Positions 3,689 to 64,000 of a stretch of DNA of 64,000 nucleotides are shown piece after piece. The first letter of the stretch is position 1. The number at the start of each line of letters is the position of its first letter. The position numbers and the translations under genes were made by a program. The notes beneath the pieces were generated by a model. It was not told the DNA's origin, searched no databases, and saw only the letters and a program-made list of their open reading frames with translations. The stretch is taken from positions 202,750-266,749 of the forward strand of contig JAEWRI010000046.1 of assembly GCA_023460085.1 (NCBI GenBank), given 5' to 3'. The stretch is from Bacillota bacterium (GTDB lineage: Bacteria; Bacillota; Clostridia; Christensenellales; SZUA-584).

Positions 3689-4129
3689 ACCTAATCTCCT
3701 CCTTTTTCTATGTTTCCATCCTTCGGCCTGCTGACCGAAATATAAATCAAAACGAAATACACCCGGCTCGTATGATGCGCTGCCGCAGCCTACGCGGCAT
3801 CAAACCGGCGGCCGTGCAATCATCATATACTCCGCATTGCTGTGATAGAAAGCGGTTAAATTCGCCATCTGTCTCTTTTTGTTTTTTTACATTGCGAAAG
3901 CCGTTCCCCAATAACCCTTTCCGGTATTCCAACCTCTTTTTTCGCTGCACGCAGCCTGTCAAACTGACATGGGCGCAGGCAACATTGTATTGGGTAAATG
4001 AAACTTGTTTTGGTTGATACTTAACACTATCATTTAATTTTAAGTATGATTATAGGACCTCTTTTTCGGTATGTCAAGCCATGAATAGATACATTTTTCT
4101 CTTTTTTTATTGCGTTTATAAAGAGGTTT

Positions 4130-49447: not shown

Positions 49448-50230
49448 ATGGAATGGTTTATCGGAATTTTTGTATTCATGATCGGCATTGTGATTGGCAG
49501 CTTTCTGAACGTCTGCATCTACAGGGTGCCGCTGGGCGTCTCCATTGCCAAGGGGCGCTCCGCATGCCCGCAGTGCGGCGCGACGCTGACTGCGCTCGAT
49601 CTGGTGCCGGTACTCAGCTACCTCGCGCTGCGCGGTAAGTGCCGCCATTGCGGCGCGCATATTTCGCCCATATACCCTGTTGTAGAGGGCGCAACGGGCG
49701 TGCTGTTTCTGCTGCTTTATTTGAAAACGGGGCTGAGCTGGGATCTTCCGGTGTATGCGGCGCTTGTCTCGCTGCTCATTGCCATCGCCTTTGTTGACTA
49801 CAAACACATGATCATCCCGAATGGCTTTGTGATAGCGGGGCTGATCATCGGCATCATCAAGCTGGCAGTCTCCATATTCACGGATGCATTTGGTTCCTGG
49901 ACACTGTACGCCATCGGCTTCGCTGCGGGCGCGCTGCCGTTGCTGCTTGTGATGGTCTTCTGCGCATTGATCTTGAAAAAGGAAGCCGTCGGCGGCGGCG
50001 ATATCAAGCTGATGGCCTTCGCGGGGCTGATACTGGGCTGGCAGCTCATCATTCCCGCATACCTCATCGGTGTTGTAGCCGGGGCTGTCGCCGGATTGGC
50101 GCTGATGGCGGCAGGAAAGAAGCGGCGCGGCGATGAAATCCCCTTCGGCCCCTTCCTGTGCTTTGGCATACTCGTCAGCGTATTCTTCGGCAACGAGCTC
50201 ATCCTTTGGTACCTGGGGCTGCTGAGATGA
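49448..50230 (+). CDS. pilD: Prepilin peptidase (A24 family, PilD)
   Basis: N-terminal Cys pairs CPQCG/CRHCG. Catalytic Asp contexts AFVDYKH and GGGDIKLMA. 260 aa, polytopic. Confidence 0.85.
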   Translation: MEWFIGIFVFMIGIVIGSFLNVCIYRVPLGVSIAKGRSACPQCGATLTALDLVPVLSYLALRGKCRHCGAHISPIYPVVEGATGVLFLLLYLKTGLSWDLPVYAALVSLLIAIAFVDYKHMIIPNGFVIAGLIIGIIKLAVSIFTDAFGSWTLYAIGFAAGALPLLLVMVFCALILKKEAVGGGDIKLMAFAGLILGWQLIIPAYLIGVVAGAVAGLALMAAGKKRRGDEIPFGPFLCFGILVSVFFGNELILWYLGLLR

Positions 50231-50973
50231 AGCGGTTACGTTCTGAAAAAGGCTTTACGCTGTTAGAAACCCTCCTCGCGATTGCCATCATTGCGGCGAT
50301 CGCGCTGCCGCTTTTTTCAATCTTTCTGCAGTCCGTCAAAACCCAGCAGGCCGCTAAGGGCATACTCAGCGCGAACTACATCTCGCAGGATTATATCGAA
50401 AAGCTGGATACGATGACCTACAGCGATGCGCTGTCGACACTGCCCAGCCGTACCTACACCAACGGGTATTACCTCAGCGCCGCGATCGAACCGTACGGAT
50501 CGGGAGGCGGGCTGTTCGATGGTTCCTGCGACTACGCGCAGCTGTTGTTTTATGACGACGGGCGCATGCTCGCGGTGCTGCCCGATGGGAAATGGCATCT
50601 TTATTCCGCGGTTCCGGCAACCATCTTGCTAAGCTCCAGCGGCGCGTCCTACTCCTTCATGGCCGGCGGCGTTACGCTGACCGGAAGCATGGAAAGCCTG
50701 AACTGTGTGGTCGTCATCAACGCCATGGCCAAGCCCTCCGGCACCGCGTGCAATATTACGCTGAACTCCGCTTTTAAGGCGCTGCGTTATTGTCTGAAAT
50801 ATGACGCGGCGGATATTGCGCTGGCGGGTACGGGCGAGACCTACTGCGATCTGATGGCAGGCGATACGTCTCTCGTCCATGTGACGACGCGTGTTTACGA
50901 GGATGCGGCGGGCGGCACGCCGGTCGCCACCGCGGAAGGCTATATCAGCATCAGGAACTGGAATGAAGACTAA
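50227..50973 (+). CDS. Type IV (pseudo)pilin with prepilin cleavage/methylation motif
   Basis: Start set to MKRLRSEKG|FTLLETLLAIAIIA (ATG 50227 overlaps the pilD stop codon). Classic G-FTLxE class III signal. Confidence 0.7.
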   Translation: MKRLRSEKGFTLLETLLAIAIIAAIALPLFSIFLQSVKTQQAAKGILSANYISQDYIEKLDTMTYSDALSTLPSRTYTNGYYLSAAIEPYGSGGGLFDGSCDYAQLLFYDDGRMLAVLPDGKWHLYSAVPATILLSSSGASYSFMAGGVTLTGSMESLNCVVVINAMAKPSGTACNITLNSAFKALRYCLKYDAADIALAGTGETYCDLMAGDTSLVHVTTRVYEDAAGGTPVATAEGYISIRNWNED

Positions 50974-51379
50974 GCGCGGATTTACATTGATAGAAGCTCT
51001 CCTGGCGCTGGCGCTCTTAACGGTCACAGCGGGGCTGATGTATACCTTTTTCTTTCAGGGCTTCACGCTGTACACCTCGGAGACAAAGACCGCAGCGGAG
51101 CAGGCGTCCCTGCGGCAGGTGCTTTCCGACATCACGAACCGCGTAAGGCTGACTGATAAGGATGACATCCGCTATACCGACGGCGTTCTGTGCATTCAGG
51201 ATGCGCGGTATACCTACGACAGCGCGGAGCATCGTGTACAGCGCGGCGACAGCATACTCGCGGATAACATCGCGGCGTTCCGCGTGACACTGAGTGACGA
51301 CCTGCTCGAGATCCGCATCGAAAGCACCTCGGGTACCGTCATGACCACCTCGCTCTCGCTGGTGGACTCAGGCGGATAA
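50963..51379 (+). CDS. Type IV (pseudo)pilin with prepilin cleavage/methylation motif
   Basis: Start set to MKTKRG|FTLIEALLALALL (ATG 50963), overlapping the upstream gene end. Confidence 0.7.
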   Translation: MKTKRGFTLIEALLALALLTVTAGLMYTFFFQGFTLYTSETKTAAEQASLRQVLSDITNRVRLTDKDDIRYTDGVLCIQDARYTYDSAEHRVQRGDSILADNIAAFRVTLSDDLLEIRIESTSGTVMTTSLSLVDSGG

Positions 51380-51477
51380 CAGATTGAACGGATTTTGTAC
51401 AGCGGGCAGCTTACTCCTGAGGCAATGCATCGGAAGGAAGACAGAATTACCGGATGATGTACAGGAAGGTGTATGGT

Positions 51478-52941
51478 ATGAAAAAAAAGGTGAAAAGAAA
51501 TCGCAATGGCTCTGCAATCATCATGGCGATGGTGACGATGATGGTACTTCTGCTGCTGGGGCTTGCCGTCGCAACGGTATCGATGGGCACGCTCCGCACC
51601 AACGTAGCGGATGCCGTCAACAACGACGCCTACTACGCAGCGGAGTCGGCCGTCGCCAGCGCCATCGAACAGCTTAAATACGAAGTCTCGGCATATTACG
51701 CCGACATGCTGGAGGCCAGTAGCAGCGAATGCGGCACGCTGTATTCGGCGTTCTTTGAAGGCATTAATCAAAACGCGAAGTGGAATTTTCACGAACCTTC
51801 TTTCAATGGAATCATCACCTCCACCACGTTCACCACGGGCAGCTACGACAGCGAAGACGAGGTCTGCGAATTTCTCGTATCATGCACGGCCAAAGCGGAC
51901 AACGGCACACGCTACCGCGTGGACGGCGCGCTGTACGTCAAGAAGGTGGATGTGCGCACAACCAGCGCCGTCTGGCTGGAGATCGATGATGCGGCACTCA
52001 AGGCGGGGGGCACGATCGCGCTCGGCAGCACCAACGGCATGAGCATATCAGGCGGCAACGTCTACACCTCCGCGCTCACCTATACGCGCTCCTGGCTGCC
52101 CTACAACATTTCAGGCGGCCAGTTGATCCTCAGTCCAGGGGTGGCCGCCACCATCAACGACTGCCTCACCTACCCCTCCTATTCGGACCCGGTGATGAGC
52201 GATATCGATCTGTACTGCACCGCCAATACCACGGTCAACTGGTCCAACGTACCCGCCGCCACCGTAGGCATCACCACCGCGCCGGGTGTGACGTTGACCG
52301 TAACCTCCTGCACCGTGCCCGCCGGCATCATCTACGGACGGGGCAATACGGTAATCAAGGACTGCAATGTATATTCCGATGTATACAGCGACGGAACCCT
52401 CTCCATCAGCAACCAGAGCCTGTACGGAGACGTTCATTGCCGCGGTAACTTAACCATCAGCAACTGCACCGTGTATGGCGACGTGTACTGCGACGGCACC
52501 GTAACGTTCTACAGCGCCGCGCTCAAGGGCTCCATATTCTCCTCGGGCGCCATCAAGATGAACGATGGCTCGATGACGGGCAGCCTGCTCTCCATGAGTA
52601 CGGTCACGGTATCCAGCGCGAGCATCGTCAAGGGCATCGTCTATTCTCACACCAAAATCTACTGCGGCAACATGAGCGCAAGCGCCGTATTTTTCTCCGG
52701 CGGGGATATCGAGATTACCGGCAGCATGTCGCTGTCGGGTGCGATGATCGCCAAGGGCAACATCGGCTTCGGAGGGGAAAGCTCTCGCTGGCTCACCATC
52801 AGCTACTCGCATTCCAAGATACAGGATGTCATGTCCAACGAAAACAACGCCGCCATGTTCAGCATCAGCGGCGGCCAACCGAAGCTGGACGAGGACGTAT
52901 TCGTGCGGCAGAGCATCACCGCACAAGGCAGACTATCATAA
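51478..52941 (+). CDS. PilX-N-like membrane-anchored protein with beta-helical repeat C-terminal region
   Basis: Start set to MKKKVKRNRNGSAIIMAMVTMMVLLLLG (PilX_N-like, no G-F-T-L-E). The C-terminal half carries degenerate ~17-20-aa repeats (GDVHCRGNLTISN / GDVYCDGTVTFYS / GSIFSSGAIKMND / GSLLSMSTVTVSS / GIVYSHTKIYCGN), as in bactofilin/polymer-forming beta-helices. Confidence 0.55.
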   Translation: MKKKVKRNRNGSAIIMAMVTMMVLLLLGLAVATVSMGTLRTNVADAVNNDAYYAAESAVASAIEQLKYEVSAYYADMLEASSSECGTLYSAFFEGINQNAKWNFHEPSFNGIITSTTFTTGSYDSEDEVCEFLVSCTAKADNGTRYRVDGALYVKKVDVRTTSAVWLEIDDAALKAGGTIALGSTNGMSISGGNVYTSALTYTRSWLPYNISGGQLILSPGVAATINDCLTYPSYSDPVMSDIDLYCTANTTVNWSNVPAATVGITTAPGVTLTVTSCTVPAGIIYGRGNTVIKDCNVYSDVYSDGTLSISNQSLYGDVHCRGNLTISNCTVYGDVYCDGTVTFYSAALKGSIFSSGAIKMNDGSMTGSLLSMSTVTVSSASIVKGIVYSHTKIYCGNMSASAVFFSGGDIEITGSMSLSGAMIAKGNIGFGGESSRWLTISYSHSKIQDVMSNENNAAMFSISGGQPKLDEDVFVRQSITAQGRLS

Positions 52942-52951
52942 GGAGAACGCT

Positions 52952-53989
52952 ATGATCAGGCAAACCCCAACCGTGGCCATCGACATCGGCCATTCGAATC
53001 TCAAGATGGTTCATACCGCGCCGGACGGCCGCATACTCCGCTTTGTGGTGCATAAAATGCCCGAGGGCTGCGTGGAGGACGTGAGCATACTTTCGGAAGA
53101 CGCGCTGATAAGCTCACTGAAAAACGCGCGGCACACCGCACACCTGACGGCAGGCAAGTGCAATCTGGTGCTGAGCGGCAGCGACATCATTATCCGCCAT
53201 TTCACGCTGCCCGTGCTGCCCGAAGACGAGCTGTACCAGAACATCATCAACGAGATGTCCGGCTACCTGCCCGTTGATCCGGACAAGTACTGCATCGATT
53301 ATAAGATAGCCGGACGTGTACAGGAGGACGGCGTGGACATGTACCGTGTGCTCGTCACCACGGCCCACCGGCGGATCGTCAGCGGATACCGCAAGGCGCT
53401 GCGCCATGCGGGGTACGGCATCCGCGTCATTGATACCTGCGAAAACGCCATTGAAAAGCTGCTGCGCATCCGCTTCGAGAAGGAAGGCCAGTTCTGCGCG
53501 GATGAGGGCATTGCCGTTATCGACTTTGGCACGGCACACACCCGCGTACACCTTTACTATAAGGGCAGCTTCTTTGTGAGCAACGTCATCAAGCGGGCGG
53601 GAGAAAAAATTACCGAAGCCATTTCTCAGACGTCCGGCAAGGATGTGCTGACCGCCGAAACGATGAAGCGCGAAAACGACTTCCTGAGCGGCAGTCATAA
53701 GAACACCGATATCACCGCGGCAGTTACCTACGAGGTGGACTCGCTGCTGTTTGAGATTGCGCGCGTATTTGACTATTTTAAAAACCGCACCAAAAAAATG
53801 GTGGGCGCGATCTACATTGCAGGCGGCGGGTCGCTGCTCCCCGGTCTTCCGGAATATTTGTCGATGCATTTGAAGATGCCGGTTCGCTTTGCGAGCGAAC
53901 TGATGGTACTGCCCGGCAACGTGGACCCCAAGGGCTTTTCTTTCATGCTCAACGCCTATGCCGCCACCTTCAGGGAGGATGCCAAATGA
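52952..53989 (+). CDS. pilM: Type IV pilus assembly protein PilM (actin-like ATPase fold)
   Basis: Start set to MIRQTPTVAIDIGHSNLKMV (ATG 52952, AAGGAGA RBS). VIDFGTAHT and IYIAGGGSLLPGL phosphate-binding motifs. Confidence 0.8.
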   Translation: MIRQTPTVAIDIGHSNLKMVHTAPDGRILRFVVHKMPEGCVEDVSILSEDALISSLKNARHTAHLTAGKCNLVLSGSDIIIRHFTLPVLPEDELYQNIINEMSGYLPVDPDKYCIDYKIAGRVQEDGVDMYRVLVTTAHRRIVSGYRKALRHAGYGIRVIDTCENAIEKLLRIRFEKEGQFCADEGIAVIDFGTAHTRVHLYYKGSFFVSNVIKRAGEKITEAISQTSGKDVLTAETMKRENDFLSGSHKNTDITAAVTYEVDSLLFEIARVFDYFKNRTKKMVGAIYIAGGGSLLPGLPEYLSMHLKMPVRFASELMVLPGNVDPKGFSFMLNAYAATFREDAK

Positions 53990-54591
53990 AAAGCGACATC
54001 AATCTGCTGCAAAAGAAGAAAGGCAAGCAGTATTCCGCGCAGAAGATAGCGCTGATGCTGGTTTTCCTCGTGTTTTTCGCGGGGGCTGTTTACGCGGGCT
54101 TCACGCTGCCGCAGAACGCGCTCACCGCCGCCCAACTGAAAGCCGCGGGGCTCAACCGGGAGCTCACAGGCTCTTCGGGCGCCGGAGACAGCCTGAGTGA
54201 ACTGACCCAGAACTACCTGACGCGCAGCGAGCAGCTGGAAGCGCTCACCGCCATCGACGGGGCGCGCTCCGATATCAACGGCTATCTGGAAGCTGTGGAA
54301 AAATCGCTGCCCACCAGCGCCAATCTCTCTACGCTGACACTCTCCGGCAAGGAAATGTCCATTACGGGCGTCGCGCTGAGCGATGCGGACGTCGCCGCGT
54401 TCTGTCTGCGGCTGCGCGAGACCGGCGCGTTTGCCAATGTATTTCTGCAAAACAGCATTGCCCTGGAGGATTACGGCGTCACCTTCTCTCTTCTGGCCGA
54501 ACTGCCCGCTACGCTGGACAGCAGCGGTATACTGCCCGAGGAAACCGAGGCCGCAGAGAGTGCCGCCACTGCGGAGGAAACAGCATCATGA
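53986..54591 (+). CDS. pilN: PilN-like pilus assembly protein
   Basis: ATGA overlap with pilM. N-terminal INLLQ motif, then a single TM segment and a periplasmic-type domain. Confidence 0.65.
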   Translation: MKSDINLLQKKKGKQYSAQKIALMLVFLVFFAGAVYAGFTLPQNALTAAQLKAAGLNRELTGSSGAGDSLSELTQNYLTRSEQLEALTAIDGARSDINGYLEAVEKSLPTSANLSTLTLSGKEMSITGVALSDADVAAFCLRLRETGAFANVFLQNSIALEDYGVTFSLLAELPATLDSSGILPEETEAAESAATAEETAS

Positions 54592-55253
54592 GTATTTCAA
54601 AACGGGAAAAAGTACTGATCATCGTCGTCGTGCTGCTTGCGCTGCTGGGTGTATACTATCTGTATTACCTGAAGCCGTGCATGGAAAAAATTGAAGACCT
54701 GAAAGTGGAAATCGCCAGCAGCCAGGCGGAGCTTTCCACCCTGGCCCTGCAGAAAAGCCAGCAGGGAACGCTGGAGGAACAGCTGGCGGAGGTGGACGCG
54801 GGGCTTGCCAAATACGCGGACGGCAGCGCGCAGGCGTTCGATCAGCCGCCGATACTCGTATACCTCAGCAAGACCGCCGGGGATAACGCCATCAAGGGCG
54901 CTATCTACTTTGACTTTCCGGTGCAGGTGGGCCAGATTCAACGCTGCCCCATCACCATCACGGTGACATGCACCTACGACGGGCTGCGGAAGCTGCTCAG
55001 CGATTTATCCAGCGCGCCCTATCTGCTGCGCGTCACCTCAATATCCGCCGGTTTGCCCACCGAAGACGACGGTACGGATGAAACCGCCTCCGGCGATACG
55101 TCCGGAAGCACCGAACCTCAAACGCCGCTCATTCCCAATGGGCTGGAGGTCAAGCTGTCGCTGGATTTCTTCTGCCTCTCGGGTGAAATCCCCGTGGATA
55201 CCGTATATGAATTTGATACCGGACGTCAGTACGGCGGCGATATCTTCTATTAA
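54588..55253 (+). CDS. pilO: PilO-like pilus assembly protein
   Basis: ATGA overlap with pilN. TM segment plus coiled coil (MEKIEDLKVEIASSQAELSTL). Position after pilMN. Confidence 0.55.
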   Translation: MSISKREKVLIIVVVLLALLGVYYLYYLKPCMEKIEDLKVEIASSQAELSTLALQKSQQGTLEEQLAEVDAGLAKYADGSAQAFDQPPILVYLSKTAGDNAIKGAIYFDFPVQVGQIQRCPITITVTCTYDGLRKLLSDLSSAPYLLRVTSISAGLPTEDDGTDETASGDTSGSTEPQTPLIPNGLEVKLSLDFFCLSGEIPVDTVYEFDTGRQYGGDIFY

Positions 55254-55270
55254 TGGCATAAACCAAACCG

Positions 55271-55289
55271 GGGCCTTCGGGCCCTTTTT
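55271..55289 (+). terminator. Rho-independent terminator after pilO
   Basis: GGGCC-ttcg-GGCCC followed by TTTTT. Confidence 0.7.
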
Positions 55290-55332
55290 CTTTGCAGCCG
55301 CACGGCTTTCCCTTCCGCGAATCCCACATAAA

Positions 55333-55358
55333 CAGCCGCGGACCGATGCCCGCGGCTG
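55333..55358 (-). terminator. Terminator-like hairpin after the minus-strand surface-protein operon
   Basis: Perfect 9-bp stem CAGCCGCGG / CCGCGGCTG with an 8-nt loop. The minus strand continues UUUAUGU. Confidence 0.5.
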
Positions 55359-55384
55359 CTCTTCCATGCCTGGCGCAGACAGCG

Positions 55385-57211
55385 CTATTGAACAATCAGC
55401 GAGATACTGACCTCCGCCGAGTTCAGCGCGCTGCCATCCTCCGCGTCATAGGCTTCGTATCTTATGATGGCGGCATAAACCCCCTGCGGCAGCGGCGGGA
55501 GTGCCACGACACCCACACTCTCTCCCGGATTCAGCAGCCCCGAGGTAAATACCACGGTTCCATCGTTCAGCATCAGACTGACAACCATCTGGCAGCGGTT
55601 TTCCGCCGGGTTGGCAATGCTCACACTCGCGCTGCCTCCGCCGGACGGCAGTGTCAGAGACGCCATGCCCGGTATGGAGATGGACGGCTGCACGCGATAT
55701 TGTGCCGTTGCGATAAAGCGTTCGTCGGCCAGCACAGCACCCGTACCCACTTCGACGAACTGCACCTCTATGGCCTTCATGCCGATGCCCGAAACGGTTG
55801 CCCGGAACGTATAATCGGCATCCGCGGCCGCGAATCCGGCAGGCGGGCCGTACGCGTCCGTAAGGGGCAGCCAGCCGCCCGTATCTTCATCCAGATACTC
55901 CAGCGTTACATCGGAGGGCATGGTGAAGTAGGCGCGCACCTTCTTGCCCGCGTCGTCGTGGGCAGTGGTGGTGAGCATAAATGTCTGCGGCTCGCCGGCA
56001 AAGAATTCCGGCAGATCGGCGGTGACGGCCATGGGCTGCTCCACCGTCACGGCAATGTCCGTGCCGGCCAGCACGATACCCGTCCCCACCTCGACATACT
56101 CCACGCCTATCGTTTTCGCGCCGGGTTCAGTAAATTGAGCGCGCAGCGAAAGCGTTCCGTCTGCCACCGCAAAGCCCGTGTCCGGGCCGAATACCGCGGG
56201 AAGGGGCAGCCAGTTCCCCGTGGCGCTGTCCAGATATTCGACAGCAACGCCGGATGGAATGGCAAAGTACGCCCGCACCATCCTGCCCGCATCGCCGTTG
56301 GCTATCGTGGTCAGGCTGAACTGCGCGGGCCGTCCGACACGGAACGTCGGCACAGTGGCAGTCAGCTGCATCGCGCCGGTTACGGCAACGCCTTCAACCT
56401 GCTCGGCAAGCACTTCGCCGCCGTCCGTCTTCAGCTGAAATTTCAGGCTGTACGCGCCGGTACTGTGCGCGGTAAAGCGCACGTTCATCGAAGCCGTCCA
56501 GTCGGGCGTAATGCTCGCAAACGAACCCAGCGTGCCATCCGTCACAGTCTGCCAGACACCGCCGGTTTCCACCTCCAGCGTGCCGCTGCCGCCGGTAACC
56601 TCACAGCTGAGCGATCCCGCCAGCGTATCACAGCCCAAATCATCGCTTGTCACCGAAAGTGAAAATCCCGTCGGGGCGTTCGCGGCGATCTCTTCCGGCA
56701 CCGTGGTATCCAGCGCATAGACGGAGCGCCGGATGATATAGCCGTTGGTATTGACATAATACCGCCCGGTTACCGCACCACCCGCGTCCAGCACCCATAC
56801 CTTCGTAATGGCCGAAAAGGCAGGAGTCGCATCCACGCTGTTAAACCACGTGTACGTGGAATCCACATTTTCAGATTCCATATACTTGCGGATGATTTCA
56901 CGAAAATTGACGAATTTCGTGGTAACCCCGCTTACATACGCCTGGAATCGATCCATGACGTTGCTTCCCAGCGTATCAAAGTAAAACTTTGCCAGTTTCG
57001 CGCTGTCCGCGTCCGGTTCATCCTCATATACCATATAGGAAGTGAGAAGGTCATCATAGTCGATATAATAACAGTCGGTGCCGTCTGAAATCACGTACGC
57101 AACGGGAATATCCGTCGAGCCCGTGCCAAACACAACCCGCGCGGTGCCGAAAAGCGCCGCAACGGTCAGCAAGCCTATGATCGCAATCATCAACGCTTTA
57201 TTTCTCATCAT
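55385..57211 (-). CDS. Large membrane-anchored/secreted protein with tandem Ig-like repeats
   Basis: The track start is GTG. I prefer ATG at 57209-57211 or 57206-57208 behind GGAGAAG. N-terminal hydrophobic anchor (ALMIAIIGLLTVAALFG). Two clearly homologous ~110-aa repeats (..VRAYFAIPSGVAVEYLDSATGNWLPL.. and ..VRAYFTMPSDVTLEYLDEDTGGWLPL..). Confidence 0.6.
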   Translation of the reverse strand: MMRNKALMIAIIGLLTVAALFGTARVVFGTGSTDIPVAYVISDGTDCYYIDYDDLLTSYMVYEDEPDADSAKLAKFYFDTLGSNVMDRFQAYVSGVTTKFVNFREIIRKYMESENVDSTYTWFNSVDATPAFSAITKVWVLDAGGAVTGRYYVNTNGYIIRRSVYALDTTVPEEIAANAPTGFSLSVTSDDLGCDTLAGSLSCEVTGGSGTLEVETGGVWQTVTDGTLGSFASITPDWTASMNVRFTAHSTGAYSLKFQLKTDGGEVLAEQVEGVAVTGAMQLTATVPTFRVGRPAQFSLTTIANGDAGRMVRAYFAIPSGVAVEYLDSATGNWLPLPAVFGPDTGFAVADGTLSLRAQFTEPGAKTIGVEYVEVGTGIVLAGTDIAVTVEQPMAVTADLPEFFAGEPQTFMLTTTAHDDAGKKVRAYFTMPSDVTLEYLDEDTGGWLPLTDAYGPPAGFAAADADYTFRATVSGIGMKAIEVQFVEVGTGAVLADERFIATAQYRVQPSISIPGMASLTLPSGGGSASVSIANPAENRCQMVVSLMLNDGTVVFTSGLLNPGESVGVVALPPLPQGVYAAIIRYEAYDAEDGSALNSAEVSISLIVQ

Positions 57212-57225
57212 ACTTCTCCGGGCCA

Positions 57226-57903
57226 CTAACTTTTCCGGACCCTGACGTGAGAACGGTACCCTCCGTCTTCCAGCGCCGGTACAGTCAAATAATACTTGCT
57301 CCCGTTAAACTCCATCGCCTGACCGTCATACGTGACCGTGTAGTCGCCCGCCGGATTTACCACGACCGTAACGATCATATACCCTGCCGGTGCAACCCCC
57401 TGCTTAGCGGATACCGAATACGTAAACTCGGGAGTCGGTTCCACAGACTCGCTGGGAGAGGTGGAAGGGGATGTAGACGTCGACGGTGACGCGGTCGCCG
57501 TGGACGTGGGGCGCGGGGTTGTAGAAGGCCGCGGGGTACCGGAAGGCCTTGGAGTTGAAGTCGGAGGCGCGGGGGTTGCCGTTGTGCTCTCCGTTACAGT
57601 AGCGGTTGCACTCGCCGATACCGTTGCGGTCGGCGTTGAAACCCCTCCGGATATGCTCACCGTGGGCGTGGGCGTGGGCCCTGCCAACGGCACCGATTCC
57701 TGGGGCAGTGATTCCACCGGGACAGGCGTAGGTATCATGGTGATCTGCGAAATCTGATGCTGCGCCCTGACCAGCGCGCCAACCAGAAACGCGATGCCGA
57801 CGATGACAACAATATGCAGGGGAATCAGCACCAGCCTTCTTCTTCTTTTTTTCTCTTCTTCAGGGTCTTGGCTTCTCGTGCTGCGTTTATTATCTTCAGC
57901 CAT
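57226..57903 (-). CDS. Single-pass membrane protein with Pro/Thr/Ser-rich stalk and small C-terminal domain
   Basis: Start set to MAEDNKRS (ATG 57901-57903 behind GGAGGG). Basic cytoplasmic head, TM segment (LVLIPLHIVVIVGIAFLVGALV), ~110-aa PT/ST-rich linker and a ~70-aa beta-rich end. Confidence 0.55.
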   Translation of the reverse strand: MAEDNKRSTRSQDPEEEKKRRRRLVLIPLHIVVIVGIAFLVGALVRAQHQISQITMIPTPVPVESLPQESVPLAGPTPTPTVSISGGVSTPTATVSASATATVTESTTATPAPPTSTPRPSGTPRPSTTPRPTSTATASPSTSTSPSTSPSESVEPTPEFTYSVSAKQGVAPAGYMIVTVVVNPAGDYTVTYDGQAMEFNGSKYYLTVPALEDGGYRSHVRVRKS

Positions 57904-57969
57904 GGGTTTGCCCTCCAATACGGATTTCGTACAAATGCAGGCTATGGGGACCATATATTTAAGGAAGAA

Positions 57970-58650
57970 CTACTGCCCTTCTTCAGGGGGTGAACCTTCC
58001 CGAACATCCCTGCGTGTTTTTCTTTTCCGGATTACTTGATGCAGCAGCAGCGATATCCCCGCGACAGCCGCCGCTCCCGCTGCCCACCACCAGTATGGCA
58101 CGGATGCCAGAAAGCCAGTGGACGGCACGGCTTCATCGCCGCCGTCGCCCGCTTTGACGACGGTAAGAACCGTCTCCTTTTCCCATACCGTCTTATCCGC
58201 CGGGCGGGATACCACAGTGAACCGCAAGAATGCGGTGTATGTCCCGTCTGCTGCTGCCCGGAACGCTTCCGCATCGATTTCTACAGAGACGCTGTAGGCC
58301 TCCCCCGCCTCTCTTTCGTCAAACGACTCCGGTGGATCGAACGCTACGGCATACGGTATCGCATTGCCGTCCGCCGCTGCCAGCGCCCCGGAGGACAGCC
58401 CAATGCTGAGCGTCTCCCCGCTTGCCAGCAACAGCTCGCCTATGGCAAACTCGCCCAGCGTCATGCGCGTGTTGGGATAATACAGTTCCGCGTCAGGCGG
58501 CGGCGTGAACGAATACATGGGTTCAACCACGCACTGTACGTCACTGGATGTCAGCCCCGCGCTGGCAGACGCCGCCGAAACGCCCGCAGGCAGCCACGCC
58601 AAAGTAAGCAGGACTGCCGCAGCAACGTAAAAATTGCGTCTGTGCTTCAA
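57970..58650 (-). CDS. Cell-wall-sorted protein: stand-alone copy of the FT[IV]-module plus VPSTG sorting signal
   Basis: TTG start behind AAGGAGAG. Signal peptide (..PAGVSAAS). ~130-aa module ending DGTYTAFLRFTVVS. VPSTG (58114..58128), then a 28-aa hydrophobic stretch and RKRKTRR. Confidence 0.65.
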   Translation of the reverse strand: MKHRRNFYVAAAVLLTLAWLPAGVSAASASAGLTSSDVQCVVEPMYSFTPPPDAELYYPNTRMTLGEFAIGELLLASGETLSIGLSSGALAAADGNAIPYAVAFDPPESFDEREAGEAYSVSVEIDAEAFRAAADGTYTAFLRFTVVSRPADKTVWEKETVLTVVKAGDGGDEAVPSTGFLASVPYWWWAAGAAAVAGISLLLHQVIRKRKTRRDVREGSPPEEGQ

Positions 58651-58729
58651 GATGCTCTCCTTTGATGAGGCGCAGGCTGAGCGCGAGCCATGGTTCAGCC
58701 CGCGCCCCGCCTCCTGATTTCACTTTGTT

Positions 58730-59947
58730 TTAGCCGTTATACGTAATGGTAAATACCATGGTGCCGCTGTAGCTGCCCGCCTTGACGATAGCGCCCGTGT
58801 CCACGGTCACACGGCCATCCTGCACCCCATCGCCAGAGAACGAGGCAAACTGCGCGCCAGCAGTCAGCGGACTTCCGCCGGCTGCCGTATTATACAGCGA
58901 GTAATTCAGCGTCGTAGCGGGAGTAGCCCCATCGCTCATCTTAAAGGTGCTTTGAACCGCAACATCGATATGAGCGCCTGCCTCAATTACCGCGCCCGAC
59001 GCAGCAACATCGAATTCCTGCGTTTTGGTGCCGTTGTCCTTAATCAATGTGCCGAGATTTACCACCGCCGGTATGGTAATGGTATAGACAGGGTTAACGT
59101 TGGCCGAAACATCGGTTCCCTCATCGGCGGCCACAAGCGTCAGCGACGGGTGGTTGACCGCGGCGTTGAAGATGTCGATCCTGTGCTGGGACATCATCAG
59201 CGTGGAGTTGCTCACCGTGTACGCAACCCCGGCACGCGGCTGGAAGCCGATGAAGTCAGGCGCAGCCAGCAGCGATTCGGAAAAGTCGATAGTGACGCCG
59301 CTCATGATAAGCGTGCCATCGTTTTTCCCGGAGAGCGATACGCGGCCTTTGGAAAGATACACATTCTCCAGCTTGTCCACGCTGCCCTTGCCCGCGTTGC
59401 TGTAATAAATACTGCCCGCAAAATCGCCTCCGCCACGGGCTTCCACCCGGACGCTTTTGATATACGATCCGCTGCCCAGCACTTCGATTATCTTATTCGC
59501 GCCGTTTGAATCCCAATAGTACTGGTTGTTGTTCGCAATCAGCGTCAGACTGTCCAGCGTTACGTTATTCCCGGCGAGCGTGATAAAGTTCTGCCAGTGC
59601 CAGTTACCGCCGGAAGCCGCGTCCACGACCTTGCTGCTGGTGATGACCGTGCCCGTGCCGCCTTTGATCGTGAGGTTGTTCGCCGTAATCGGGAAAATAA
59701 AGTCGGTTCCGCCATTGATGCTGATGGAAGAATACGTTGCCACCAGTCCAGGCGTCAGATCGAACGTCTTGTGCGACGCAAGCACCCACGTCTGATCATC
59801 AGCGCCGCCGCCTGCCTGACTTGCGATTGCCGCCGCAAGCTGTTCTGCCGTGCTGATGTTTACCGTGGTGCCAGCCGCGAGCGCCGCTGCGGGTACCATT
59901 GTCAGCACCAGTGCAACCACCAGGATAAGTATGAATGACTTTTTCAT
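58730..59947 (-). CDS. Secreted beta-helix protein with conserved C-terminal ..GTMVFTITY module (paralog 1)
   Basis: Signal peptide MKKSFILILVVALVLTMVPAAALA. The variable N-region is homologous to that of paralog 4. The last 121 aa form the conserved module. Confidence 0.7.
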   Translation of the reverse strand: MKKSFILILVVALVLTMVPAAALAAGTTVNISTAEQLAAAIASQAGGGADDQTWVLASHKTFDLTPGLVATYSSISINGGTDFIFPITANNLTIKGGTGTVITSSKVVDAASGGNWHWQNFITLAGNNVTLDSLTLIANNNQYYWDSNGANKIIEVLGSGSYIKSVRVEARGGGDFAGSIYYSNAGKGSVDKLENVYLSKGRVSLSGKNDGTLIMSGVTIDFSESLLAAPDFIGFQPRAGVAYTVSNSTLMMSQHRIDIFNAAVNHPSLTLVAADEGTDVSANVNPVYTITIPAVVNLGTLIKDNGTKTQEFDVAASGAVIEAGAHIDVAVQSTFKMSDGATPATTLNYSLYNTAAGGSPLTAGAQFASFSGDGVQDGRVTVDTGAIVKAGSYSGTMVFTITYNG

Positions 59948-60043
59948 TTTTTCTCCTTCGTTTTCTTATTGATATTTGCGGACACGTGACAACGCGATGT
60001 CATCGCATTGCTGTCACGGTCTTATCCGTTCTTCATCAAAAAC

Positions 60044-60079
60044 GCAGCCTGGATAAGCGGGGCTGAAGCTCAGTCCCGC
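60044..60079 (-). terminator. Possible terminator/attenuator between paralog 2 and paralog 1
   Basis: Minus-strand hairpin GCGGGACUGA-gcu-UCAGCCCCGC (one mismatch), then CAGCC..GGCUG and CGUUUUU. This is the only long (146 bp) spacer in the array. Confidence 0.4.
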
Positions 60080-60093
60080 CCCGGCCTTCGTCG

Positions 60094-61248
60094 TCAGTCG
60101 ACATAGGTAATCGTAAATACCATGGTGCCGCTGTAGCTGCCCGCCTTGGTGATAGCGCCCGTATTCACGGTCACACGGCCATCCTGCACACCGTTGCCAA
60201 GGAACGAGGCAAACTGCGCGCCCGTAAGCAGAACGCTTCCGTCTACTGCCGTATTGTACAGCGAGTAAGCCAGCGTCGTAGCGGGGCTGGCGCCATCGCT
60301 CATTGTAAAGCTGCTTTGAACCGCTACGTCGATATGAGCGCCCGCCTCAATTACCGCGCCCGACGCGGCAACATCAAATTCGCGTGTTTCGATGCCGTTG
60401 TCTTTAATCAAGGTGCCGAAGTTAACCACCGCCGGAATGGTGATGGTATAGACGGGATCCACTTTGGAATTGACCGCGGTGGTTTTGCCGCTGTACCTCG
60501 GGAACACCAGCCCATTGGCGGCGGAATAACCGGTGACCTGATTTTCCACATAGGCACCGTTATTGGCCGCGCTGATGGCCGCCACATCGTCATACGCATG
60601 CGCGTCCGGTGCGCCCGCGTTGGCGATGACCGCGATATCCACCGTGTTGCCGCCAAAGATGTTGCCTGTAAATGTGCACGTCGCATCGGTGCATACCACC
60701 CAGCCGCGCGTTCCGTATACCTTATTGTTGATAATCTGACCCGTTACGCCGCCGTCGATATAAGCCGGCTGACGCAGCGCCCTGACGAGGTTCCCTTCTA
60801 TCAGGAGGCCTGTGGCGTGAGGCGTGAGCAGCATCGCACGGGCAACTTCAGCATCTCCCAGCACATACTGCCCGGTAAAGGAGCAGTTCTTGACGACACA
60901 GTTGGCCCTTACGTTTACGATTCCCGCCTGCGCGGTCTTGTCCGTCTTCAGAATGGTCAGGCCATCCAGTGTCGCACCTGTCTGCATATCAAACACGATG
61001 CTGCTGCCGGATACGGTGATTTCGACACCCGTTGCTGCCGTAAGCGTTACGCCGCTCTTAACGGTATACACGGTGTTCAAGCTCATATCCGCCATAACTT
61101 TAACGACGGTGCCGGAGCTCGCTCCGGCGAGAGCGGTAGCAAGATCCTCTTTGGTGCTCACTTCCACCGGTGCGTCCGCCAACGCAACGGTGGGCACAAG
61201 CACGAGCACCATGATCAGCGCCAACATCAATGCGAGAGTCTTTTTCAT
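60094..61248 (-). CDS. Secreted beta-helix protein with conserved C-terminal ..GTMVFTITY module (paralog 2)
   Basis: Signal peptide MKKTLALMLALIMVLVLVPTVALA. Beta-helix-type repeats (VVKNCSFTG.., LLIEGNLV.., IINNKVYG.., TFTGNIFGG). The module is nearly identical to that of paralog 1. Confidence 0.7.
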   Translation of the reverse strand: MKKTLALMLALIMVLVLVPTVALADAPVEVSTKEDLATALAGASSGTVVKVMADMSLNTVYTVKSGVTLTAATGVEITVSGSSIVFDMQTGATLDGLTILKTDKTAQAGIVNVRANCVVKNCSFTGQYVLGDAEVARAMLLTPHATGLLIEGNLVRALRQPAYIDGGVTGQIINNKVYGTRGWVVCTDATCTFTGNIFGGNTVDIAVIANAGAPDAHAYDDVAAISAANNGAYVENQVTGYSAANGLVFPRYSGKTTAVNSKVDPVYTITIPAVVNFGTLIKDNGIETREFDVAASGAVIEAGAHIDVAVQSSFTMSDGASPATTLAYSLYNTAVDGSVLLTGAQFASFLGNGVQDGRVTVNTGAITKAGSYSGTMVFTITYVD

Positions 61249-61293
61249 TGGTTCTTCTCCTTAATTATGATTTCTTTGCGGTAACCGCTTTAA

Positions 61294-62634
61294 TTAATCC
61301 AAATAGGAAATCGTAAATACCATGGTGCCCCGGTAACTGCCCGCGGCAGTGATTGCGGATGGATCCACGGTGGTACTGCCATCCTCCGTGCCATTGCCTG
61401 TAAAGGTTGCAAATGCGGCGGGCGGGGTTATCTGCCCCGATTCGTTGCTCAGCGTATATGCCAAGGGTACGGAACCCGCCCCGTTATCGTCCTTCATCAC
61501 GAAAGGACCCGCAACGGATACAACGATGGAAGCCCCGTCGCCGACAAGTACATCTCTCGCCTCAATGTCGAACTCCTTCGTAACCGGACTGCCTTCCCTG
61601 ACAAGCGTACCGAAATCTATGGCAGCCGGAATCACGATGGTGTAGGCAGGACTGACATCTGCCGTTACCTCGGTACTGTCAAAATGCGGACAGGGCGCGC
61701 TGTCCCTGAGATCCAGCATGCTCGCGGTAAAGCCGGTAAACGTGCCGCCCCAGTAGACATCCGTGGATGCAAGGTACACCGACAGCGCGGGCGCATTGAC
61801 CACATTGCCCAGGATATCCGAGCCCGTTATCACCACATTGACCTGTGTGGATGCCCTGAATACGATGGCGTCCCCGCCCGGGCAGGATAGTACACTGTCG
61901 GTAATGGTGAGGGTACCATTATTGGCTGTGCCCGCAGTCTCGCCCAGGCGTACCGCGTAATCCGGCGCGTTGGCGTTAATGCGCACATTCGTCAGTGTAA
62001 TATCGCTGCTGTTGTTGGCATTGATACCGGAATTCGTATCATTTGTGACGATATTCTCCACCGTAAGCGTGTGGCATCGGGCCTGAACGACACAGTCGAG
62101 CCGCGCAAACGTGCAGTTCCGTATCGTAGTGTTATAGGCCGTATTGCCGCCCGAGGAACCAGCCTGCACCGCAAAGGTGTATTCTCCCGATTCGTCCCCG
62201 GTGAAATCACAATCCTCAATGGTCACGTTGTGCGCGTACTTTTTCATATCGATTGTGTACACATGCGTCGTAAGAGTGATTCCCGTCTTATCAAACGCCA
62301 GCCCGCGGATGGTCAGCGTGTCCGTACCCGCGTTTCTGTTTGCGCCGTCGATGACCATATTGCCTTGGAATACAGCCCCGGTTTGTCCGGCAATGACGAT
62401 ACTCTTGTCTGCCTGCTGCAGTATCTGCACCGTCTCGTTATAGGTACCGGCTTTCACCACGATTTCCCACGTTCCCGCGGCACCTGCCTGCACCGCGTCA
62501 ACCGCGGACTGAAGGGTCGTGTACGCCTCACCCGGCCCTACGTTGAGGGTGTAATCCGCCGCCAGCGCAATTGTCGGCATGAGTACCAGCATCATCATCG
62601 CTGCCAGCAAAATGAAAAGCGCTTTTTTCATCAT
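61294..62634 (-). CDS. Secreted beta-helix protein with conserved C-terminal ..GTMVFTISY module (paralog 3)
   Basis: Signal peptide MMKKALFILLAAMMMLVLMPTIALA. Right-handed beta-helix-like repeats (NVTIEDCDF, NTTIRNCTF, TLTVENIV, ITLTNVRI, TLTITDSVL). This is the most divergent copy of the module. Confidence 0.7.
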   Translation of the reverse strand: MMKKALFILLAAMMMLVLMPTIALAADYTLNVGPGEAYTTLQSAVDAVQAGAAGTWEIVVKAGTYNETVQILQQADKSIVIAGQTGAVFQGNMVIDGANRNAGTDTLTIRGLAFDKTGITLTTHVYTIDMKKYAHNVTIEDCDFTGDESGEYTFAVQAGSSGGNTAYNTTIRNCTFARLDCVVQARCHTLTVENIVTNDTNSGINANNSSDITLTNVRINANAPDYAVRLGETAGTANNGTLTITDSVLSCPGGDAIVFRASTQVNVVITGSDILGNVVNAPALSVYLASTDVYWGGTFTGFTASMLDLRDSAPCPHFDSTEVTADVSPAYTIVIPAAIDFGTLVREGSPVTKEFDIEARDVLVGDGASIVVSVAGPFVMKDDNGAGSVPLAYTLSNESGQITPPAAFATFTGNGTEDGSTTVDPSAITAAGSYRGTMVFTISYLD

Positions 62635-62674
62635 TGTTCTCCTTTTGAACTGATATTGCTGAGCGCGCGCCCGC

Positions 62675-63934
62675 TCAGTCGATATAGGTAATGGTAAATA
62701 CCATGGTTCCGCTGTAACTGCCCGCCTTGGTAATAGCGCTGGTATCCACCGTCACCCGTCCATCCTTAGGGCCGCTTGCGGTGAACGACGCGAACTCTGC
62801 GTTATTGCTGAGTTTGCTGCCGCCTTCAGCCTGGTTGTATAACGAATATCCAAGCCACGTAGGCGGGGTCGCTCCGTCGCTCATCTTAAACTCGCTCTGG
62901 ACATTTACGTCGATATGCGCACCCGCCTCAATCACAACATCCTGCGCGACGATGCTAAAGTCCTTAGTTACAAGGCTGCTGCCTTTAACCATCGTTCCAA
63001 AATCTACGCTTGCCGGAATGATGATAGTATAGGTGGGGCTCACAGCGGCGGTTACATCTGTTCCGGTATCCTTAACCAGCGTAGTGCCCAGCGGCGCTTG
63101 TTCAAAGATCTGCTGCTGTTCATCCGCCAATTCGTCATAAATTATGGTGAAATCGACCGCGTTAATGACATCCGGGTTTTTGCTGATCACGCGGTAGAGA
63201 TCCGGTCTGTAGCCCGCATACCATGATCCGCGGAAGTCGATGGTGGTTCCGCCCGTCAGGTTCAGCGTACCGGCGCTGACATAGGAGGTGCCGCAGGAAA
63301 TCCAGGCCTGCGTTACCAGCACATTGTCCAGCGTCGCCGTACCGATATCCTTGTCGGAGTTCTGAGGGTTGAAGAAAATGCTGCCCGCAAAGTAGCTGGT
63401 GTAGCCTTCCCAATAATCTGTGTCCGATCCGACCGCTATACCCAGCTGAGCGCAGTAGTCCTCGTGGGTGACAACATTGTTGTGCAGAATATCAATGTTC
63501 CTCAGCGTTACATTCCGCCCCATCACTTCAAACGCTTTATTGGTGTCGATCTTTGGCCGGACGGTCAAATCCTGGACCGTCACGTCATCGCCGGCAATCG
63601 CAAACATATTCTGGCTTGCCCAGCTGCCGTTTCTTGAAACTTTAGAGCTCGTAATCACCGTTTTATCGGTGCCCGCGCCATTAATGGTGATACCGTTTTG
63701 AACGATTGGAAAATACCACCCGGTCTGTCCTCCATATGAAATGGTCATGTTTCTGCTGATGTCATAGACCCCGGCCGCAATATTCCACGTCTGGCCCGGT
63801 GCCTGATTGGCGATGGCCGTCTCCAGCTCCGCGGAGGTCGTGATGTTCACCGTTGTCCCCTCCGCGAGTGCCACGGCGGGCACCAGTGCCAATACCAGCG
63901 TAAGCGCCAACATCACTGCTAAAATCTTCTTCAT
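62675..63934 (-). CDS. Secreted beta-helix protein with conserved C-terminal ..GTMVFTITY module (paralog 4)
   Basis: Signal peptide MKKILAVMLALTLVLALVPAVALA. The N-region is homologous to paralog 1 (GTTVNI[ST]T..L..AIA.QA..QTW). Module present. Confidence 0.7.
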   Translation of the reverse strand: MKKILAVMLALTLVLALVPAVALAEGTTVNITTSAELETAIANQAPGQTWNIAAGVYDISRNMTISYGGQTGWYFPIVQNGITINGAGTDKTVITSSKVSRNGSWASQNMFAIAGDDVTVQDLTVRPKIDTNKAFEVMGRNVTLRNIDILHNNVVTHEDYCAQLGIAVGSDTDYWEGYTSYFAGSIFFNPQNSDKDIGTATLDNVLVTQAWISCGTSYVSAGTLNLTGGTTIDFRGSWYAGYRPDLYRVISKNPDVINAVDFTIIYDELADEQQQIFEQAPLGTTLVKDTGTDVTAAVSPTYTIIIPASVDFGTMVKGSSLVTKDFSIVAQDVVIEAGAHIDVNVQSEFKMSDGATPPTWLGYSLYNQAEGGSKLSNNAEFASFTASGPKDGRVTVDTSAITKAGSYSGTMVFTITYID

Positions 63935-63972
63935 TGGTTTTTCTCCTTCAAATGATTTTTAATCATCACCGA

Positions 63973-64000
63973 TTAATCCACATAGGTAATGGTAAATACC
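63973..64000 (-). CDS. 3' end of a fifth paralog (partial, runs off the window)
   Basis: The minus strand reads ..V F T I T Y V D stop, identical in style to the other module ends. It lies 38 bp upstream of the paralog 4 start. Confidence 0.5.

Follow-up and report, generated by a model that had tools for sequence, protein, structure and literature searches.

How are secreted proteins that carry no recognisable attachment signal of their own displayed at a Gram-positive cell surface? This question is raised by a minus-strand locus at the right-hand end of a 64,000-nucleotide stretch (the window) of contig JAEWRI010000046.1 from an uncultured Bacillota bacterium of the class Clostridia. In the window, five proteins with different N-terminal regions (heads) and a common C-terminal module are encoded side by side with one module-only protein that bears a sortase-type signal (the anchor), and a gene downstream ends in an immunoglobulin (Ig)-like domain, referred to as the partner. 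The locus very probably encodes a co-functioning surface system. It is best read as related to the WxL/Csc clusters of Bacilli, as their Clostridial sister or as an analogue; the module would then correspond to the WxL domain, the small anchor of related loci (mini-anchor) to the small LPXTG protein and the partner to the protein WxLIP. Its parts would form a Gram-positive surface display or fimbria-like system made up of three component types, namely module proteins, an anchored base and a membrane-tethered partner, and we infer with moderate confidence that strand complementation is the mechanism that joins them.

The original prediction had placed five minus-strand genes and a gene for a protein of 226 amino acids (aa) at this site, and open reading frames (ORFs) were found exactly there (Table 1). 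In the four complete heads, a signal peptide of the cleavable type (MKK, a hydrophobic stretch and ALA) is followed by a variable region and the conserved module, as had been proposed. The C-terminal 127 aa or so that make up the module are 46-81% identical among the window paralogs, and the heads terminate 1-2 residues past it. The module is shared among the heads far beyond chance, since a hidden Markov model (HMM) of it matches them with E-values of 1e-45 to 1e-50. Immediately N-terminal of the module, the heads carry the strand T-[DE]-V-[TS]-A-x-V-x-P. A beta-helix nature of the variable regions, assumed at first for all heads, was found directly for the 446-aa head (Pfam Beta_helix) and the 419-aa head (TIGR03805) and only weakly, by a NosD-family match, for the 384-aa head, whereas the variable region of the 405-aa head matched no family in Pfam or NCBIfam. 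In agreement with the prediction, the same databases gave no LPXTG, S-layer homology (SLH) or choline-binding match for the heads. The gene that is cut off by the window edge could be completed from the same genome in public data (ENA ERZ28599896 scaffold_12, 384 kb; L001), where it encodes the fifth head of 470 aa (3266..4678).

In Pfam, NCBIfam and PDB sequence searches, the module gave no match above threshold. Its structure was modelled for the 405-aa head with AlphaFold2 (AF2), and the model is confident (predicted local distance difference test, pLDDT, 90.9). When this model was compared with the PDB by Foldseek, the top 28 matches were all chaperone-usher (CU) pilins or pilin-containing subunits, the best being CsuA/B (6fqa_B, query TM score, TMq, 0.67; 7zl4, E 1e-3; TMq 0.58-0.67 for the CsuA/B entries), followed by CfaB, FimG, FimA and PapE. 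The Pfam family SCPU (PF05229) scores 15.1 bits on the window module (E 0.03), under its gathering cutoff of 22.4, and weakly matches 12 of 141 family members (E<=0.1; best 2.7e-5). The module ends with G-x-Y-x-G-x-h-x-F-x-h-x-Y plus 0-6 residues, in the window in the form A-G-S-Y-S-G-T-M-V-F-T-I-T-Y. A last strand that runs from a Gly to a penultimate Tyr is the classical C-terminal signature of CU pilins. By its predicted fold, the module is a remote, sub-threshold relative or a structural equivalent of the SCPU pilins, and the resemblance of its last strand to chaperone-usher/SCPU subunits, which had been noted from the letters of the DNA, is thereby extended to the fold.

The predicted fold of the module is that of both archaic (Csu of Acinetobacter; SCPU) and classical CU pili (Fim, Pap, CFA/I). 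In these pili, a donor strand of the next subunit or of the chaperone takes the place of a missing G strand. Their pilins have in common with the module the C-terminal strand and an N-terminal strand of alternating small and hydrophobic residues, and the combination of head and module resembles the two-domain build, adhesin plus pilin domain, of FimH and CsuE. Unlike in CU pili, the host, a Clostridia metagenome-assembled genome (MAG), is monoderm by inference, anchoring is via a sortase-type signal, and the sequence similarity of the window proteins lies below the family thresholds. PapD_N/PapD_C and Usher were not matched by any locus protein in Pfam or NCBIfam.

In the anchor, VPSTG is followed by 28 mostly hydrophobic residues and RKRKTRR, so that the sequence features taken as a sorting signal of the 226-aa protein are confirmed; the signal is sorting-like. 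The only sortase gene of the window lies 41 kb from the locus and encodes a candidate enzyme for this signal. The anchor had been described as essentially the same module alone. This holds as far as homology is concerned, but the copy is divergent, with only 21-24% identity to the head modules. A small HMM built from the heads only gave no significant match to the anchor (E 0.003-8), and an hhalign comparison of 7-sequence with 9-sequence alignments was insufficient (E 0.018). Homology was accepted because a 148-sequence profile of the head family, with the anchors excluded, aligned end to end with the anchor alignment (107 columns; hhalign 92%, E 6.9e-7); judged by these profiles, the window anchor carries a divergent homolog of the module. 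The anchor module opens with the N-terminal strand SDVQCVVEP. Past the module, an additional conserved strand follows (PADKTVWEKETVLTVVK, also given as TVWEKETVLTVVK; inside 58129..58203, with conserved V-W...T-x-T-x-x-K), which may self-complement the anchor's own module.

In loci of the Ruminococcus type, the anchor is a mini-anchor of about 105 aa (84-114 aa) without a module. Its signal peptide leads into G-x-T-E-V-[VI]-A-x-I-[ED], after which come a linker rich in acidic residues and Ser, x-x-T-G, a transmembrane (TM) segment and a short basic tail (a mini-anchor peptide is GNTEVVAHIEAES), and it was present in 33 loci by regular expression and in 2 more by eye. Seven diverse mini-anchors are 23-32% identical overall; outside the start Met and a single D, invariant columns are confined to the five named residues of T-E-V-x-A-x-I and to the TG of the sorting-like motif. 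The same strand is carried by stand-alone module proteins of the same loci at their mature N-termini (GNTEVTANIQ..., GSTDVTARIEG...). An anchored protein that conserves only a strand it has in common with pilin-fold subunits would be expected if such subunits received this strand in trans, in the manner of donor-strand complementation. Contact between modules, put forward originally as the general docking principle, is probably not the rule, because most related loci have anchors with no module and only the shared N-terminal strand and a sorting-like signal. Many members with RCC1 heads and some stand-alone members (e.g., P0073-P0075, P0079, P0087, P0093) do not have the canonical N-terminal TEVxAxV, and their profile match starts at position 8-9; if the strand is a donor, these members would be tip-only subunits.

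The conservation of the locus, another check that had been suggested, was examined in genomes and metagenomes. The window-type loci L003, L004 and L009 show the same order, i.e., partner, heads, anchor (VPSTG/IPTTG), a TM/Pro-Thr-rich protein and the 613-aa protein, and the core of partner, module and anchor is conserved in about 60 loci. The partner is the component that is linked most tightly, and it was missed in the original list of components. It comprises the C-terminal ~100 aa of the downstream 613-aa protein; a second copy forms the C-terminus of a 277-aa protein encoded just outside the window edge, 5' of the array (L001), and the domain also occurs in signal-anchored proteins of about 170 aa in distant loci. 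Twelve genome or MAG loci have upstream sequence (Clostridia and Bacillota MAGs, Christensenellaceae, Ruminococcus spp., Pseudoruminococcus massiliensis, Lachnospiraceae). According to the partner HMM, 11 of them have a partner gene directly 5' of their first module gene, and in the twelfth (L016) the partner gene sits between two module genes. In an independent test of this linkage, metagenomes were scanned with the partner alone as seed and loci were counted if at least 500 bp followed downstream. A module-HMM ORF came after the partner in all 45 loci; in 44 loci its start lay between -10 and +200 bp. Among Clostridia of gut and rumen, the families are common, with carriers that include Ruminococcus, Pseudoruminococcus, Blautia, Lachnospiraceae, Acutalibacteraceae and Christensenellaceae, and a cultured carrier is available in P. 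massiliensis Marseille-P3876 (L015).

The partner family contains at least 834 clusters at 90% identity. Wherever one of its matches has a source name, this name is 'hypothetical protein', and Pfam domains are absent from the matches. AF2 models the partner as a seven-strand sandwich (pLDDT 81), which predicts an Ig-like domain and allows no finer assignment. For the anchor, 242-aa, 613-aa and partner proteins, the family and structure look-ups (Pfam, NCBIfam, PDB sequences) gave nothing above threshold. Between the TM helix and the Ig-like domain, partner proteins contain the motif G-V-x-G-K-I-x-x-x-W-D-x-G (e.g., L005 9450..9962, residues ~43-57), which reads G-A-V-D-W-E-G in the 277-aa protein; by analogy with the hairpin of WxLIP, the module might receive this motif as a strand.

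In the proposed mechanism, the module would expose, after Sec export, a strand-accepting edge or groove beside its last strand AGSYSGTMVFTITY. The base, which would be held at the cell by VPSTG, TM segment and basic tail and has the N-terminal strand of the module proteins, would insert this strand into the groove and so tie the head to the wall. The module proteins, with their pilin-like module behind five different heads here and elsewhere alone or behind RCC1, Big_2 or adhesin-type heads, perhaps chain to each other in the same way, because they carry the same strand; short heteropolymers with different heads would result. Bound to the membrane, the partner would hold or chaperone the module, as WxLIP (DUF916) does with WxL domains in AlphaFold predictions. 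A wall-anchored base with exchangeable heads, as envisaged from the start, fits these data, the heads of the family including RCC1, Big_2, beta-helix and pectate-lyase-like types.

WxL/Csc complexes, which occur in Lactobacillales, Listeria and Bacillus and have been connected with adhesion and virulence in Enterococcus and Listeria, had been named as a related system and proved to be the closest known one in terms of cluster logic, anchors and an hhalign comparison of module and WxL domain; the W-x-L motif is absent, as had been noted. WxL clusters consist of a small WxL protein, a large WxL protein, a DUF916-DUF3324-TM protein (WxLIP/CscA) and an LPxTG protein (CscD/EF2685 type), and in large WxL proteins the C-terminal WxL domain stands behind adhesin heads including beta-helices (PMC9772566, PMC10599100). 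Peptidoglycan binding has been reported for large WxL proteins, and Bacilli hold 99% of the WxL sequences of Firmicutes (PMC9772566). According to AlphaFold-Multimer, the WxL sandwich has a gap that takes up a WxLIP strand, which runs parallel to one of the strands of WxL (PMC10599100). The Clostridial system likewise combines domain-only paralogs and paralogs with a head plus C-terminal domain, a membrane-tethered Ig-like protein and a small, putatively sorted protein. The head types overlap (beta-helix, pectate-lyase-like adhesive domain, Ig-like), and the last strand of both domains follows the pattern G-x-Y-x-x-T-[LM]-x-[WF]-x-[LI]. In both kinds of cluster, moreover, the sorted protein has its N-terminal strand in common with the domain proteins.

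This last point was found in plasmid clusters of E. faecium, E. faecalis, E. raffinosus, E. gilvus, Bacillus tropicus, Listeria and lactobacilli. In every fetched WxL cluster with an LPXTG protein, the mature N-terminus of the latter resembles the WxL proteins of the same cluster type: NYDSNGVTAFYG vs. DYDSNGVVEFIP and NYDSNGVITFTP in E. raffinosus, HTSHAGIYFNG vs. ATSNATIKFLPG in E. faecium, and TSQAGITFTGDG vs. NSTGKVTFTAGD in pGTC3. Strand pairs such as YDSNGVTAF and YDSNGVVEF or TSHAGIYF and TSNATIKF illustrate this likeness, and an identity matrix of the N-terminal 9-mers falls into blocks by cluster type. One WxL protein of E. faecium opens with HDTDVTAEIIEGG (TDVTAEII), which is the Clostridial motif. 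The likeness between LPXTG and WxL N-termini is apparently unremarked in PMC9772566 and PMC10599100, and as a sequence pattern it suggests a role for the LPXTG protein of WxL clusters. Genuine plasmid WxL clusters are located at L069 4412..7073, L072 721..5513, L065 5421..8295, L066 4060..6465 and L071 4131..5435. The anchored protein of pGTC3 is an LPKTG protein annotated as SpaA isopeptide-forming pilin-related.

When 148 sequences of the module family were compared directly by hhalign with WxL domains, 15 in number, the result was a probability of 64% and an E-value of 6.5e-5 for an alignment that is colinear across the whole domain, the reversed control reaching E 0.45. The second W-x-L (tWtL) falls on tFtI of the module and the first on the I-x-V strand. 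Profile support for homology of the two domains is weak and suggestive. Pfam WxL (PF13731) did not match the module at E<=10, and WxL is not among the 25 families listed for 141 relatives (67 further families at E<=0.1 lie outside that listing). A mini-anchor matched, over its full length, the NCBIfam family NF053819, which comprises small LPXTG proteins (EF2685/EF0750) from WxL clusters (E 9.6e-5, 22.9 bits, cutoff 47), and reached 16.0 against a cutoff of 15.9 with TIGR01167 (LPXTG_anchor). For the window anchor, which has VPSTG, TM segment and basic tail, NF053819 gave no match. DUF916/DUF3324 did not match any locus protein in Pfam. Homology between partner and WxLIP was tried and rejected, as the first match paired one TM helix with the other and was surpassed by its reversed control, and the ectodomains alone show none; the two may be compared by analogy only, as TM-tethered Ig-like proteins.

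Unlike the WxL domain, the module has neither W-x-L motifs nor the D-x-R-G...G-W-x-L turn. The partner differs from WxLIP in its N-terminal anchoring and its single domain of ~100 aa, and the locus differs from WxL/Csc clusters in that the window anchor holds a whole module and in its taxon, Clostridia. The description of the complex as undescribed was right for the module, partner and anchor families and too far-reaching for the system, which is a variant of the WxL/Csc kind and not wholly new. All three families are unannotated: Pfam and NCBIfam gave no match above cutoff, the sub-threshold match of the mini-anchor being the nearest, and named sources speak of hypothetical proteins throughout. 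The system is best called a WxL/Csc-type complex with a CU-type subunit fold, and the WxL/Csc kind thus extends from Bacilli to gut Clostridia.

More tentatively, the Clostridial module and the WxL domain of Bacilli could both be descendants or structural equivalents of CU pilins and define a Gram-positive, usher-free fimbrial or display pathway. There the incomplete subunit would be held by an Ig-like protein that is tethered to the membrane (partner or WxLIP), N-terminal donor strands would lock subunits together, and the small sorted protein would be a donor strand on a stalk. If true, the paradigm of WxL as a peptidoglycan-binding domain would be reassigned, and the otherwise unexplained LPXTG protein of Csc/WxL clusters would be accounted for: strand sharing would give these complexes a concrete mechanism with the LPXTG protein as donor strand. 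The system would also account for the display of adhesin or glycan-active heads that lack LPXTG, SLH and cohesin-dockerin signals, and it suggests that CU-type strand complementation is perhaps not confined to diderm bacteria.

Two other types of surface structure were considered. Sortase-assembled pili (SpaA/Cna type) are likewise Gram-positive surface structures with a wall-sorted base subunit. In contrast to them, the heads have no sorting signal, the locus contains no pilin motif/E-box, Cna domains or class C sortase, and the joining would be non-covalent. Beta-strand complementation independent of chaperone and usher, outside a single membrane, is reported for TasA fibres of Bacillus subtilis and for archaeal threads and bundling pili (PMC9674648). 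These donor-strand filaments belong to another fold family, whereas the locus has an anchored base and a dedicated membrane partner; Peptidase_M73/TasA and SipW were not matched in the locus in Pfam or NCBIfam. In the literature searched, no description of SCPU or donor-strand systems in Firmicutes or Clostridia was found.

Several observations weigh against a CU-like system built by strand insertion. The SCPU score of the window proteins stays under the Pfam cutoff, and the link to WxL is weak at 64% probability. Both AF2 models, of module and partner, are monomers, and that of the module is confident without a complementing strand, so that the fold may be complete in itself; its first 11 residues are coil (pLDDT ~67), which in the model would suit a free strand as well as one in cis. 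The partner gave no homology to the DUF916-3324 ectodomain (hhalign, E 0.063). Its Foldseek matches are generic (CBM, i.e., carbohydrate-binding module, CopC, cadherins), with the CU chaperones SafB, DraB, FimC, Caf1M and FaeE and with MSP among the top 50. The candidate assignment of the partner as a PapD-like chaperone by fold was dropped as evidence because this search does not discriminate. Sorting motifs are non-canonical (VPSTG, VKTG, ISTG, ILTG), and since two anchor orthologs (P0010, P0154) have no recognisable motif, some bases may be only membrane-anchored. The head proteins have the strand in their interior, where the head gives way to the module, and this is an unusual place for a donor strand. 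Finally, the strands of the window anchor and the window heads share 4 of 9 residues (D-V-x-x-x-V-x-P), no better than the background between systems. Co-variation of strands within the window is for this reason not claimed, and the strand argument rests on the Ruminococcus-type and WxL loci.

The most probable of the alternatives takes the module as a plain non-covalent cell-wall (peptidoglycan or polysaccharide) binding domain, as WxL domains are conventionally viewed; the heads would adhere to the wall by themselves, with anchor and partner as separate surface proteins and without any strand insertion. The confident monomer model and the weak profile similarity to WxL would suit it, as would the C-terminal position of the module behind adhesin- or enzyme-like heads, which is that of the WxL domain in large WxL proteins with reported peptidoglycan binding (PMC9772566). 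It is considered unlikely, because it leaves unexplained why anchors conserve only the N-terminal strand common to the module proteins, why the order of partner, module and anchor is near-obligatory in about 60 loci, and why the module has the fold and the C-terminal signature of CU pilins.

The range of heads bears on a second alternative. The module had appeared near-unique in a word-indexed search (1, later 17 matches), which an exhaustive HMM search revealed as a sensitivity artefact: among 1.84 billion representatives, the module was detected in 1086 clusters (50% identity) at E<=1e-3 and in 253 at E<=1e-10. It is nearly always located at the extreme C-terminus, 0-6 residues from the end, of proteins with a Sec signal peptide. 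These are either stand-alone modules of 150-200 aa, as present in L005 and L013-L016, or have varied heads (RCC1, Big_2, beta-helix, a pectate-lyase-like adhesive domain, Flg_new, leucine-rich repeats), with RCC1 propellers in 16 of 141 family members. The heads might instead be ordinary secreted polysaccharide-active enzymes (pectate-lyase/pectinesterase-like beta-helices) that arose as paralogs by tandem duplication, with the module as a CBM or spacer. Direct DNA repeats do connect the module segments and the signal-peptide/ribosome-binding-site segments of the tandem head genes, Pectinesterase and Pel9A-like matches occur weakly among the heads besides Beta_helix, and Ig-like folds are frequent among CBMs. 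However, only the generic Beta_helix family passes its threshold and no catalytic family does, the structural matches of the module are pilins and not CBMs, the module also occurs alone (secreted proteins of ~160-200 aa) and behind RCC1, Big_2, leucine-rich-repeat and Flg_new heads, and partner and anchor accompany it whatever the head type. An enzyme array of this kind is thus improbable.

Within the family, a reverse architecture was observed in P0066, P0071, P0098 and P0120 (module at residues ~30-160) and also in P0133 / L009 6076..7470, where the module comes right after the signal peptide and is followed by a C-terminal domain of ~110 aa without assignment or by a beta-helix; the C-terminus of the module is therefore not always free. 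Furthermore, a conserved ORF of 57 aa was seen between the last module gene and the mini-anchor gene (L005 12006..12179, L013 11177..11350, L015 12542..12715 and several of L026-L048). It joins a signal peptide directly to the last ~40 residues, i.e., the final two strands, of the module. Either a deletion left it behind as a remnant, or it could be a 'strand-only' product made on purpose.

Table 1. Features of the surface locus and of related genes in the window (positions refer to the 64,000-nucleotide stretch).
Feature	Position	Strand	Description and evidence
Head, partial gene, 3' end only	63973..64000	minus	28 nt at window edge; terminates with VFTITYVD and stop, the last strand of the module
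Head, 419 aa	62675..63934	minus	Signal peptide, beta-helix-type N-terminal region (TIGR03805 8e-9), module 62678..63061 (module HMM 9e-50)
Head, 446 aa	61294..62634	minus	Signal peptide, right-handed beta-helix (PF13229 1.6e-6), module 61297..61674 (module HMM)
Head, 384 aa	60094..61248	minus	Signal peptide, variable region (weak NosD-type beta-helix match), module 60097..60480 (module HMM)
Head, 405 aa	58730..59947	minus	Signal peptide, variable region without family match, module 58733..59116 (module HMM)
Anchor, 226 aa	57970..58650	minus	Signal peptide, divergent module 58204..58545, extra strand, VPSTG 58114..58128, TM segment and RKRKTRR 57973..58113
242-aa protein (225 aa as called in L001)	57226..57954	minus	Basic N-terminus, TM helix, Pro/Thr/Ser-rich linker, C-terminal domain of ~70 aa
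613-aa protein	55385..57226	minus	N-terminal signal anchor, domain of ~130 aa, Ig-like repeats, C-terminal partner domain 55388..55684 (partner HMM 1e-45)
Sortase gene, 331 aa	16060..17055	minus	TLLTC motif; PF04203 3e-26
Type IV pilus-like operon	49448..55253	plus	PilD peptidase, two N_methyl pseudopilins, 495-aa PilX_N protein, PilM, PilN, PilO/T2SSM-like

The genes of the locus are closely spaced, with gaps of 38, 40, 45, 146, 79 and 15 bp from the partial head gene down to the gene of the 242-aa protein. The stop codon of the latter overlaps the GTG start of the 613-aa gene by 1 nt, which suggests translational coupling. In L001, the fifth head gene is preceded on its 5' side by the gene of the 277-aa membrane protein and then by rplM-rpsI. 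The 242-aa protein has been kept only in window-type loci (L004, L009; broken in L003), and the small domain behind its long linker reads PEFTYSVSA...YRSHVRVRKS. Promoter and terminator scans of 55000..64000 stayed at chance level, except for a bidirectional GC-rich hairpin with T tracts at 55270..55285, between the convergent stops of the type IV pilus (T4P)-like operon (55253) and the 613-aa gene (55385). Judged by its sequence and place, it is the sole terminator-like element making positional sense in the region.

The T4P-like operon converges on the locus in the window and is co-directional with it in L003 and L004; it is incomplete, as no PilB/PilC/PilT ATPase or platform gene lies beside it. 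That the module proteins are cargo or decorations of this T4P/type II secretion-like machinery is very improbable: PilD, pseudopilin and PilMNO genes are direct neighbours of the locus in four cases (the window, L003, L004 and L009), and a report on C. perfringens associates the secretion of a matrix protein with T4P (PMC11580942), but the heads have Sec-type signal peptides and no prepilin leaders, the operon orientation varies, the terminator-like hairpin separates both operons, and L005, a Ruminococcus-type locus with Pfam-annotated neighbours, shows no T4P genes beside the core. The linkage is probably a lineage-specific synteny, adjacent only in window-type loci, and not part of the surface system. 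In L005 (1027..9463), the core of partner, module and anchor is preceded by a two-component system of the LytTR type and by a surface protein of 2128 aa (fn3/Glug) whose end is formed by VVNTGD, a TM segment and RRKK. The 495-aa PilX_N protein of the T4P-like operon in the window contains a bactofilin-like beta-helical repeat region.

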